IMG/VR virus record: IMGVR_UViG_3300011742_000001
Location: 1 to 43,649 of that record
DNA length: 43,649 bases
Source of the DNA: a virus
Reading direction: 5' to 3' (one strand)
Shown here: positions 9,001 through 12,000 of the stretch, piece after piece
How positions within the stretch are numbered: the first letter of the stretch is position 1
How the letters are laid out: each line of letters starts with the position of its first letter
Made by a program: the position numbers

Positions 9001-12000
9001 CCAGCGGCGCGGTGATCCAACCCATCAAACAGCGGGTCAACTAGCCAGGGTATCGACGCAAGGTCAGTCACGAACCAGCGCGGCACGGTGAACTCCCGAC
9101 CGTCGCGTGCGTGATACCGGAACGGCTCGAGCAACACCCACTCGCCCGGCTTGTACGCCCGCAGATCCAGCGCGCCGGAGAACCATGGTTTCTCACTCAT
9201 GGCATTCAACCCTCACCTTGTGCGGTGCGGTTCGGGTATCCATCACGGCACGGTATACCGCGCGGTCTACGGCTGGCTTGCCGCAGTAGTAGGACGCGAG
9301 CGAGGCTGCGCAGCCTTGTAGGGTGAGCAGCAGGCAGGCGGCAATGATTAGGCGCATGGTGGTTTCCCTTCGAACAGTGCCCGCTCAGCAGCGCGGCGCT
9401 TAACGAGCCCGGCCAGCTTCTTGCCCGAGGCATAGACCCAGCGGTCGAATTGAGCCGCAGCGCCGGAGTAGTCGCCAGCGTTCAGCAGTCGCAGCAGCGT
9501 CGAATTGCCGAGGTTGGCGGCGCCAAGGTTGTAGGTGAACGAGACCAAGGCGTCGAGCTGGCCCTGCGTCAGCGGAACCTTGACCAGTCGCAGAACCTGA
9601 TCCTCGAACCGCTTCACGTCCTCGCGCAGCAGTTCCTCGGCGCGCTCCTTTGTGATGGTGTCGCCCATCTTCACGCCGGCCGTGGTGCCGTAACCGATGG
9701 TTGGGACCTTCCATCCGTGAGCTGGGTCTGGATAAGCCTTGGCGCTAAATCCTTCGAACCTCTTTATTAAGTCAAGACCTGCGTTACTTGTTTTATGTAT
9801 ATCCTTCATGTATTCTTACCACCATTACTGGTCAGTCATAGGAATGAACTGATGGATGTTGAAATCTGGAAACTATGCAAAGACATTGACTACCCGCTTG
9901 AAGTGTCTAACTTCGGCAATGTTCGGTCTCTCGATAGGCTATCCGTAGTGCACGGAAGAATGAAGAACGGCAAGATCCAAGGCGAGTTCGTACAAAAGCG
10001 CCCAGGAAAAACATTGTCTCCGTCCACAACAAAAAGCGGATACCTAGAAGTTGCTTTGATGGTTCAAGGGAAGCGCCGCAAATTCTGCGTCCACAGGCTT
10101 GTCGGTATGGCTTTTGTTGATGGCTACTTTGACGGCGCATCAATAGATCATTTGGATGGGAACAAAAAGAACAACCGCGCAGACAATCTTGAATGGGTAA
10201 CTCTTTCCGAGAACACAAAGAGGCAATGGGCAACTGGTCTAGTTGATCTAAGAGGAGAGCTAGCGCCCGGCGCAAAAATTACTAACGCCCAAGCGCACGC
10301 GATTTTTGTTCTAGTAGAAAACGGGTTTATGGTTTCTCAGATATCTGATTGGTTTGGGGTTTCTACGTCTTGTATTTACAAGATACGTGACGGAAAGCGT
10401 CATATAAAAACATCAGCCGGGCATTTATAGGCAGACAGGCGCAGCCCCTCGAAGGACTTGATCAGGTCAAGCCCCTTCTGTGATGTGTGCATATGAACTC
10501 CAGGCGAAAAAAAGCCCCGACTGGCGGGGCTGTAGTACTTACATCCCAAGCGAATTGGCACTAGGCCTGCTCCAGTGCCTCGACGATATTGCGGTAGATC
10601 ATCTGGTGTCCTAGAGCATTTGGGTGCAGTCCGTCAGCTAGAGTGGCTGCCGGGTCTGACCAGTTGAAAATAGCGTAATTGTCGATGAAATCGTAATTCC
10701 GGGCCCGCGCCAGCTTGTTCAGTGCGCCGCGAATATCCTGCATCGTGAAACGCTTGCCAGACTGGTTAGCTGTATCGACATGGTTGGCGCACATTACGAT
10801 TGGCGCGCACAGCGGATCGAGAATATCGAAAATTTCGTCCATCTGTTGCTCGAACGCGTTCAGACCGTTAGGCCAGGTGCTGTCTAGTCGGTCATTTGTG
10901 CCGAGCTGAACAAACGCGTAATTGTCTTTCGGCGTAACGGCGATATCTGGAAGATATGCTGTGGTTAATGCGCGACTTTTGTAGCGTGTCGAGTTACTGC
11001 CGCTGATCCCCTGGTTGGTGATCCGTACAGTTTTTGGGATCTCGATAGCCTCGATGCGCAACCGGCGCACCGATGAATACGCAGCTCCGCTTAGACGGAT
11101 TCGAACGGTTTTGTTCTTGATGAACGGGAAAGTGTGCTGAATCCGGTTTCCGAAAGTTCCGGTTACTATAGTCCCGCCGTTAGGAACGAAGCTGAACAGC
11201 CCTCGACTAACGCCGTCCGTGAATAGCTCGTACTCGCCCGCGTCGCTGTCAATTGCCGAAAAGACAAGGTTGAACGCCTCGCCCGTCATGTTGAAAGCGA
11301 TTTCGCCAGCGTTGGCGCCGGCCGACACGGTCATAGTGGCTTGGTATCCAGTAACAGACTGCGCTGCTGCCGCATCCGCGATGCTCGCGGTTCCTGTCGT
11401 CGTAAACGTGAACGGCGCCCGGTTGGGGTACAGCAACACATTGCGCGTATAGGTCGCAATCGCCTCGCCTGCTGATGAAGCGGCCCAGTTGCTGATGACC
11501 GGGGTTGCGTTCTCAAAGTACTGCCGGCCCAGGTAGCGTTTAAATTCATTCACGAACGTAGCTGTCGCGAAATAATCACGGCGAGTCGCAAGTGTGGTCA
11601 GATCGGAGCCAGGGGAAATATTGCCCGGAACAGTCGCCCCCCAGGTGATCGAATCCCCAAGGAATGCAATTCCGGTAAACTGTTCGAACGGGTTGCCTAG
11701 TGATGCTTTGAGCGCCGCCAGCTGGCCACCGTAGTGATTGAACCGGCCGAAAGGAATCACGGCGCCGGAATTAAGGCTAGTGCGTAGAGACTGATCCCCA
11801 ACGTCTACAAGTTTGGCCGCGTCATTACTCCACGTGCCGGTCAAACTGACCGGGAATGTTGCAGGCATAGCGACCCGATATACAGAGCCGTTGTAGTCGA
11901 TAAGCTGAGTCGGGCGCAGAACGCTAAACGCCTGACCGGGGACGTAGGCTAGGTGCACCGGCTCAAATCCTGAGGCGGAAAGCCACTGATTGAACGCCAG

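Follow-up and report, generated by a model that had tools for sequence, protein, structure and literature searches.

A putative homing-endonuclease cassette with a replacement gene head inside a phage GH24 endolysin gene

The locus described here lies in the IMG/VR virus record IMGVR_UViG_3300011742_000001, whose whole stretch of 43,649 nt is called the window and supplies all coordinates that are given without another source, and it consists of a GH24 endolysin (lysozyme) gene that is interrupted by an AT-rich cassette with an HNH endonuclease gene on the opposite strand. The carrier is a temperate phage of Pseudomonas or Stutzerimonas. From the tail-fibre gene to the end of the lysozyme gene, the features are arranged as follows (ORF, open reading frame; aa, amino acids; GC, fraction of G+C; GC3, the same at third codon positions):

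10561..12204, minus strand: tail-fibre-type ORF of 547 aa with a GDSL/SGNH hydrolase domain at its C-terminus
10503..10531, minus strand: strong intrinsic terminator 3' of the tail-fibre gene (hairpin 10531..10513 plus a T-run), ancestral and outside the cassette
10498..10501, minus strand: intact GGAG Shine-Dalgarno (SD) sequence of the original lysozyme start, 12 bases past the terminator hairpin
10408..10492, minus strand: the "fossil", i.e., the original lysozyme start (ATG at 10492; 28 codons plus 1 nt), MHTSQKGLDLIKSFEGLRLSAYKCPADV, which matches cassette-free alleles
10400..10402, minus strand: stop of the frame opened by the ATG at 10492 (MHTSQKGLDLIKSFEGLRLSAYKCPADVFI), which enters the cassette for 2 codons
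9702..10407: putatively mobile cassette of 706 nt (GC 0.452), in which a 42-nt divergent spacer separates the HNH gene from a replacement lysozyme 5' segment
9852..10430, plus strand: HNH gene of 192 aa (NUMOD4, HNH_3 and a weak HTH_23)
9810..9851: 42 nt of spacer separating the two divergent starts (HNH and lysozyme), with 100% identity among the four contexts compared
9702..9809, minus strand: replacement lysozyme 5' segment with the new start and codons 1-36, MKDIHKTSNAGLDLIKRFEGFSAKAYPDPAHGWKVP
9348..9701, minus strand: resident body of the lysozyme gene, which starts at T37 of TIGYGTT and includes the stop (GC 0.64, GC3 0.80)
9348..9809, minus strand: complete GH24 lysozyme ORF of 153 aa (PF00959, E 9e-50)

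The cassette within the lysozyme reading frame

Windowed GC drops from 0.60-0.65 outside to 0.39-0.49 across ~9700-10450 (45% for the cassette vs ~62% for its flanks), and within the lysozyme ORF GC3 is 0.42 in codons 1-36 vs 0.80 in the remainder, so that the AT-rich block which the preliminary description of this DNA saw interrupting a GC-rich operon is a strong compositional discontinuity. Its limits, placed there at ~9732-10415, are corrected by the comparison with L002, a cassette-free contig (encoding the protein P0062) that is collinear with the window to the left and to the right of 9702..10407: window 10533..10410 corresponds to L002 4008..4131 (93.5% DNA identity) and window 9701..9364 to L002 4136..4473 (81% identity). 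Because the two matching blocks are separated by a gap of only 4 nt in L002, the 706 nt of 9702..10407 are an insertion within the lysozyme ORF, and the insertion point in the ancestral gene lies between GTT (V28) and TGG (W29). The cassette-free alleles include an L002/P0015 type (KCPADVWTIGYG), an L013 type (RCPADIPTIGYG) and an L023 type (KDVVGVVTIGYG), and the region of the presumed target within such alleles contains the sequence GCCTATAAATGCCCGGCTGATGTTTGGACGATCGGCTATGGCACC.

The fossil is identical in 28 of 28 aa to the N-termini of two cassette-free lysozymes, P0015 and P0062, which start MHTSQKGLDLIKSFEGLRLSAYKCPADVWTIGYGTT and agree with it over all residues to V28. The closest lysozyme homologues form two groups, one with this fossil-like start and the other (P0001, P0002, P0004 and P0006) starting like the live lysozyme of the window, MKDIHKTSNAGLDLIK. 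Upstream of the ATG, CTGGAG is kept in nearly all free alleles and in all fossils aligned (L012 and L023 have AAGGAG). The similarity between the two lysozyme N-terminal copies of the window is weak (21 of 29 nt in the core, 14 of 24 aa), and at least one of 1000 shuffles attained their best local DNA score, 13; an internal repeat was therefore rejected as proof of the fossil, the case for which rests on the cassette-free alleles. The stranded second N-terminus proposed in the preliminary description stands, with its SD, its ATG and its full match to free alleles, but it spans 28 codons instead of ~22, and its likeness to the live copy is weak. In the relatives, the two N-termini do not head two independent full genes, and an upstream duplicate N-terminus was present in only 2 of the 106 lysozyme loci tested. 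A role of the fossil as a regulatory upstream ORF or in coupled translation was considered and rejected, since its frame stops ~590 nt before the new start. The fossil might also be a chance ORF or the product of an assembly chimera, with no biological duplication behind it, and many of the related contigs are indeed short metagenomic assemblies; we regard this as next to impossible, because the same architecture recurs in independent ENA, Logan and IMG/VR assemblies, because a variant of it lies within a 7.19-Mb NCBI record of Pseudomonas aeruginosa (CP084890.1, see below), and because of the match to free alleles over all 28 residues.

The replacement 5' segment is AT-rich (GC 0.38 in its first 81 nt) and includes E19 of the conserved FEG motif, which we take, from established knowledge of GH24 enzymes, to be the catalytic Glu of the lysozyme; the resulting ORF covers the full PF00959 profile (positions 1-125 of 125, residues 16-142). 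Among the lysozyme relatives listed from 80 IMG/VR and 80 GTDB loci, a GC-rich body headed by the AT-rich MKDIHK start of the window type was seen only in cassette carriers (L039, L062), and in all comparisons the AT-rich segment accompanies the HNH gene, which bears out the earlier proposal that the cassette brings its own lysozyme 5' segment. As part of what we consider the likely explanation of the locus, the cassette would bring a ribosome-binding region along with its start codon, and the new codons would derive from a lower-GC lysozyme and would be joined in frame to the resident body at the TIGYGTT motif, a complete enzyme being made from the new start.

The antisense ORF at 9852..10430, previously called a NUMOD4/HNH gene, was confirmed as such by its Pfam domains (NUMOD4, E 4e-10; HNH_3, E 1e-11; a weak HTH_23) and by a match to the I-HmuI structure 1U3E (PDB, E 1.5e-18); it belongs to phrog_59 ("HNH endonuclease") in PHROGs, and H81, H100, N108, N112 and N121 are invariant across 29 HNH homologues. 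The ratio of nonsynonymous to synonymous substitution rates (dN/dS) of the gene is 0.14 against its homologue in L171, and between cassette types the imported lysozyme segments differ by 0.12-0.33 at nonsynonymous sites vs 0.68 to saturation at synonymous sites. These low dN values relative to dS show that both are translated and under selection, the pattern being that of purifying selection acting on the HNH gene and on the new 5' segment alike. The HNH ORF extends 23 nt across the cassette junction into the antisense of the fossil, so that fossil codons 21-28, read in antisense, supply its last 7 codons (K186 onward) and its TAG stop, and its tail varies with the fossil allele among backgrounds (KTSAGHL, KTSAGQR or KT before the stop). 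A packaging HNH was considered as an alternative identity and rejected, because location and domain set are wrong and the gene lies far from the terminase.

Searches of reference collections placed the cassette outside the sampled isolates. The HNH protein had no match in the GTDB representative genomes, the window lineage being absent from the species representatives, and a megablast search of 9000..11200 against 50,697 phage records gave no match either; a more distant blastn mode returned matches to the lysozyme body only, except for phage YMC11/02/R656, which matched both fossil and body. In tblastn searches of isolated phages with the HNH protein, identities among the top matches listed were 37-39% and those of all records were below 60%, which argues that no isolated phage in this collection carries the cassette. 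As judged by every computationally testable criterion for a free-standing HNH homing-endonuclease gene (HEG), the gene is of the homing-endonuclease type.

Recent spread, loss and older forms

The cassette was found in three other phage backgrounds, L003/L004 (ENA), L007 and L008 (both IMG/VR), and on the fragments L005 and L006, and it is absent from L002 and other close IMG/VR relatives. Its junction is identical in L003, L007 and L008, the left end falling at the same nucleotide as in the window (GATGTTT followed by TTATATGACGC). The fossil allele and the surroundings are different ones in each of the four backgrounds (the fossil of L008 is MHISETGLALIRQFEGLRLLAYKCAAYV), and the tail-fibre modules also differ between the two backgrounds compared in this respect (Peptidase_S74 in L003 vs GDSL in the window). 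Identities of these backgrounds to the window are distributed along the locus as follows:

Cassette, five sub-segments: 96.7-100%
Fossil: 94, 89 and 74%
Lysozyme, 9601-9701: 86-96%
Lysozyme, 3' part: 69-81%
Terminator region: about 62%

Overall, the cassettes of L003, L007 and L008 are 99.2-99.6% identical to that of the window and the flanks 79-83%, i.e., 3-6 differences in 706 nt vs 75-93 in 439 nt (Fisher p 1e-26 to 1e-35). The identity extends to synonymous sites, and selection at the protein level therefore cannot explain the conservation of the cassette. On the right side, the contexts are identical from the new ATG to ~9685 (the TIGYGTT codons) and diverge downstream from points that vary (from ~9684 in L007 and from ~9678 in L003); the stretch ~9685..9701 of the resident body, identical among contexts, represents the minimum co-converted tract, and the varying end points match what would be expected of gene-conversion tracts of different lengths. 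Taken together, the comparisons show a cassette that appears far younger than its flanks and that is, or was until very recently, mobile.

A further allele carries a hybrid lysozyme and no HNH gene (L041; IMGVR_UViG_3300036546_000073, 2440-2700). Up to and including codon 14, and with its terminator and SD, it agrees with the L008-type fossil, and the sequence starting at TTCGAAGG (FEGFSAKAYPDPAHGWKVPTIGYG) has 100% DNA identity to the lysozyme segment of the cassette; the protein P0003 is of the same hybrid type, with fossil-type codons 1-14 followed by the cassette-type FSAKAYPDPAHGWKVP tract. The comparison shows in L041 what reads as a precise scar of cassette loss, produced by recombination between the two direct lysozyme 5' copies. 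Such an event would delete the endonuclease gene and retain imported sequence over the insertion site, which makes L041 a candidate cleavage-resistant allele. Alleles for invasion, carriage and loss have thus all been observed.

Older relatives share the architecture of the window. They encode HNH homologues of 83% (P0122; L171-L173) and 76% identity (P0123; L169, L170), and the order in L169-L173 is tail fibre, fossil, antisense HNH gene, ~40 nt and a lysozyme gene with an AT-rich 5' end (GC of the first 81 nt 0.41-0.43 vs 0.62-0.65), adjoined by small downstream ORFs and an integrase. The imported N-termini of the two older cassette types differ (MTVISKTSERGLSLIKEFEGLGLKAYLDVVGVPTIGYGTT and MPVTYRTSEKGINLIKHFEGLRLSAYTCSAGVLTIGYGTT), and their fossils are ~30 codons (83% type) and ~20 codons (76% type) long. 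In L169, the fossil is frameshifted and the lysozyme intact, from which it follows that the fossil is no part of the expressed enzyme.

HNH relatives of lower identity (40-64%) lie divergently beside a PF00959 lysozyme gene in 12 loci (one more, L257, is without a lysozyme). A hydrophobic, holin-like ORF lies past the 3' end of the HNH gene in about 5 of these 12 loci, and a fossil was found in none of them. Degenerate patterns derived from the HNH profile retrieved, from metagenome and IMG/VR contigs, mostly distant (50% or less) HNH genes, the closest of which were lysozyme-adjacent. One relative of 57% identity (L338:2013-3112; Logan SRR23967303_58691) lies next to a lysozyme gene whose first 81 nt have a GC of 0.37 vs 0.63 in the remainder, with a holin-like ORF beyond the HNH gene and no fossil, and looks like a case of lysozyme 5' co-conversion without stranding of the old end. 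The distribution suggests that the ancestral state may have been a free-standing HEG between holin and lysozyme genes that co-converted the lysozyme 5' end.

A second, apparently unrelated endonuclease occupies the same site in a P. aeruginosa prophage (L174, L175; CP084890.1), in which 850 nt without a called gene precede the gene of the lysozyme P0021 (L175:2220-3000, i.e., ~6.8168-6.8176 Mb of CP084890.1). This stretch contains a 28-codon fossil (MRTSQRGIDLIKSFEGLRLSAYQDSVGV) that equals the 5' end of the endolysin gene of phage YMC11/02/R656, a 223-aa antisense ORF that encodes a different HNH protein (phrog_374, E 1e-58; no Pfam or PDB match and no detectable similarity to the HNH protein of the window), and a new AT-rich lysozyme start (MKASQDALDIIKKFEGFSEKAYPDPAHGWRVPTIGYGTT) at the same codon-28 site. 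The isolated P. aeruginosa phages that were matched are all cassette-free at this site. Either the endonuclease gene might have been swapped within an older frame, or two HNH families might have converged on a site just upstream of TIGYG.

Proposed origin, alternative explanations and expression

In our view, the locus is probably a free-standing HNH HEG cassette inside a GH24 endolysin ORF, inserted between codons 28 and 29, which supplies a replacement gene head and has left the original 5' end stranded. The HNH protein would nick or cut cassette-free lysozyme alleles near codons 28-30, and repair from a carrier genome would copy in the HNH gene together with the imported 36 codons, with homology provided on the left by the fossil and the upstream terminator and on the right by the lysozyme body. 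Carriers would be immune to cleavage because of the cassette variant FSAKAYPDPAHGWKVP in place of LRLSAYKCPADVW and because of the split site. The arrangement probably began with a one-sided repair, the donor having had its genes in the order holin, antisense HNH, lysozyme. The right end of the break would have found lysozyme homology, and the left end would have been joined illegitimately at or near the break, giving rise to the fossil; such a joining without homology would account for an HNH ORF that lacks its own stop codon. The lysozyme gene would be transcribed by read-through from the late operon.

Several points weigh against this reading. Endonuclease-driven spread is deduced from sequence patterns, and one ancient insertion followed by ordinary homologous recombination among mosaic phages could yield identical junctions as well. 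I-HmuI is described as nicking DNA, which leaves the break chemistry of the HNH protein of the window uncertain, and the junctions of the cassette types lie at ~codons 20, 28 and 30, so that they need not mark one cleavage site. As for expression, a promoter scan of 9000..11000 gave 0 sites, and neither inspection by eye nor conservation between cassette types indicated a promoter for the HNH or the lysozyme gene; in addition, Rho-dependent polarity would be expected over the ~590 nt of antisense RNA that go untranslated between the fossil stop and the new start, unless processive antitermination operates in the phage.

Some of these points would also suit a passive foreign block (a moron-like element) of one illegitimate origin, shuffled by ordinary recombination, with the HNH protein uninvolved in its spread or domesticated. 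The phages concerned are highly mosaic, tail-fibre modules vary at the adjacent slot, identical junctions are expected from a single origin, and some phage HNH proteins act in DNA packaging and not in homing. The near-identical tract, however, ends within ~6 nt on the left and ~20-130 nt on the right of the cassette in three independent backgrounds; left crossovers confined to ~6 nt make an account by ordinary recombination less likely, and such tight tract ends fit break-stimulated gene conversion at the site better than random crossovers. The HNH clade moreover stays beside lysozyme genes across 40-99% identity, an unrelated HNH gene occupies the same codon in P. aeruginosa, and the domain set and the I-HmuI match are typical of homing enzymes, with the gene nowhere near the terminase. 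We therefore consider a passive block unlikely, if still the most serious competitor of a homing cassette.

A self-splicing intron with an antisense endonuclease gene, in which the fossil would be a real exon 1 spliced to the lysozyme body, is very improbable in our judgement. The SD and ATG of the fossil are intact in most contexts, an in-frame join of GATGTTT to GGAAGGTCCCAACC can be drawn by eye, and phage lysin genes are known to host group I introns. There is also the example of an unannotated intron in the terminase gene of phage ICP1 that was detected only by RNA sequencing (PMC10448857). Against these stand the Rfam results: a cmscan search of 9300..10700 on both strands returned no group I or group II intron family at E<=10. 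The cassette also contains a complete and selected in-frame alternative N-terminus with start codon and FEG motif, for which an intron has no need, the fossil of L169 is frameshifted though the lysozyme is intact, and, as the L041 scar shows, the new segment functions as coding sequence. Of the "exon-like" segment in the preliminary description, the replacement 5' segment is real and the exon is a metaphor. The only hits of this Rfam search were weak and terminator-like, to asX2 (a Xanthomonas sRNA); the one at 10449..10532 on the plus strand (23.7 bits vs a gathering score of 70) coincides with the hairpin of the terminator and is in all likelihood fortuitous.

The terminator before the lysozyme gene had been counted as part of a new separation of the endolysin from the late operon. 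It is in fact ancestral, being present in the cassette-free L002, L009, L013, L018 and others, which implies that these phages already depend on terminator read-through or antitermination. Relative to them, only ~680 nt of antisense sequence (~590 nt untranslated) is new in the window. No sigma-70-like promoter was detected in the 42-nt spacer (9810..9851).

The surroundings of the locus vary as well. The tail-fibre slot beside the lysis genes holds a GDSL/SGNH hydrolase in the window and Peptidase_S74, pectate-lyase/beta-helix and Phage_tail_beta modules in L003, L171 and L172, i.e., module swapping occurs immediately beside the cassette. On the other side, a 54-aa lipoprotein gene (LTLQGC lipobox; 9193..9357, minus strand) overlaps the lysozyme stop and is followed by a gene for a DUF1353 protein (8715..9209, minus strand); relatives have a pair of ORFs of 101-105 aa and 64 aa (possibly spanins) at this position instead, so that the lysis cassette downstream of the lysozyme gene also varies among relatives. 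A tyrosine integrase gene lies at 6910..8091 (plus strand), and the GC dip (0.49-0.50) at 8050..8420, between integrase and lysis genes, is a candidate attachment-site region, near which several related contigs end. A tRNA-Gln (anticodon TTG) is predicted at 20040..20122 (plus strand) within the structural genes, on the strand opposite to the surrounding long ORFs.

Implications and comparison with known systems

If the cassette is what we propose, a selfish endonuclease gene can invade an essential phage coding sequence without splicing machinery, by importing a gene head. We put at about an even chance the broader proposition that such "5'-end replacement" is a further way for phage HEGs to inhabit an essential ORF, besides introns, inteins and genes-in-pieces, in which a start codon and a divergent, cleavage-immune stretch of the first ~36 codons are imported, the stranded end serves as left arm for further homing, GH24 endolysin genes are a recurrent target (at least two unrelated HNH families having converged on one codon just upstream of TIGYG), and the junction records the founding break. 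The locus would offer a compact natural system for the study of free-standing HEG homing in temperate phages of Pseudomonas and Stutzerimonas, with a 706-nt cassette, target alleles, a candidate immune allele, a loss scar, older relatives and a second endonuclease, and a target site is predicted for an uncharacterised I-HmuI-like enzyme. As regards annotation, fossils may hide among the short "hypothetical" ORFs 5' of endolysin genes, endolysin N-termini (FEG motif included) can be chimeric and horizontally acquired, and HEG ORFs can go uncalled, an example being the P. aeruginosa one, for which the gene table of the searched collection has no entry. Of interest to phage engineering, the locus shows that an antisense stretch of ~700 nt between late operon and lysis gene can be tolerated.

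The free-standing HNH HEGs of phages (T4 mob and seg genes, relatives of I-HmuI) resemble the element of the window in combining an HNH nuclease with modular DNA-binding domains (PMC2988022, PMC10448857). Presence/absence polymorphism at one site, a conserved neighbouring gene as target, an element far more conserved than its flanks and co-conversion of adjacent sequence are likewise shared. Such HEGs are normally intergenic or located in introns or inteins, whereas the element of the window lies inside an ORF with a substitute 5' coding segment, and its HEG ORF, unlike the usual free-standing ones, ends at a stop codon that the antisense strand of the target gene provides. The nrdA gene of Aeromonas phage Aeh1, split by mobE (PMC3045599), is likewise a case of a free-standing HEG within an essential phage ORF whose function is kept without splicing; there, however, both halves are translated and assembled, whereas in the window the upstream piece is discarded and an imported copy replaces it.

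The group I introns with HNH genes, such as that of I-HmuI in the SPO1 DNA polymerase gene, share the nuclease family and the invasion of a conserved catalytic region of a conserved gene. Group I introns also occur in lysin genes of Staphylococcus and Streptococcus phages. In contrast to such introns, the window has no detected ribozyme core, its HNH ORF is antisense, and function would be restored at the level of DNA and translation and not by splicing. Integrating elements (e.g., prophages in tRNA genes) supply a replacement gene end at their attachment site, and insertion into a gene together with a substitute for the displaced end is common to them and to the cassette; they use integrases and identical att cores and usually restore the 3' end, whereas the window cassette has no recombinase and brings a divergent homologue. 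In the literature, no phage report of a fossil combined with an antisense HNH gene and a new lysozyme head was found, within a coverage that is incomplete and leaves an earlier description possible.

The closest parallel is provided by the mORFs of fungal mitochondria, which make "gene hybrids" in atp6, atp9, cox2 and nad3 of Glomus (PMC3630166) and, for an atp6 mORF, in Allomyces macrogynus (Paquin et al. 1994, as described in PMC3630166). In both systems an endonuclease element sits in a host gene and brings a foreign version of the end that it displaces, the native end becomes an unexpressed remnant, and it is the native end that matches close relatives, the inserted copy being divergent. 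The fungal elements replace the 3' (C-terminal) end, whereas the cassette of the window replaces the 5' end with the start codon and the FEG motif; they are organellar, and most tabulated cases have an endonuclease ORF that is in phase with the host gene, whereas the HNH gene of the window is antisense and resides in a temperate phage. By this comparison, the restoration of an invaded gene by an imported end has a clear precedent in fungal mitochondria, and what appears to be new here is that it concerns the 5' end, involves an antisense HNH gene and takes place in temperate phages.

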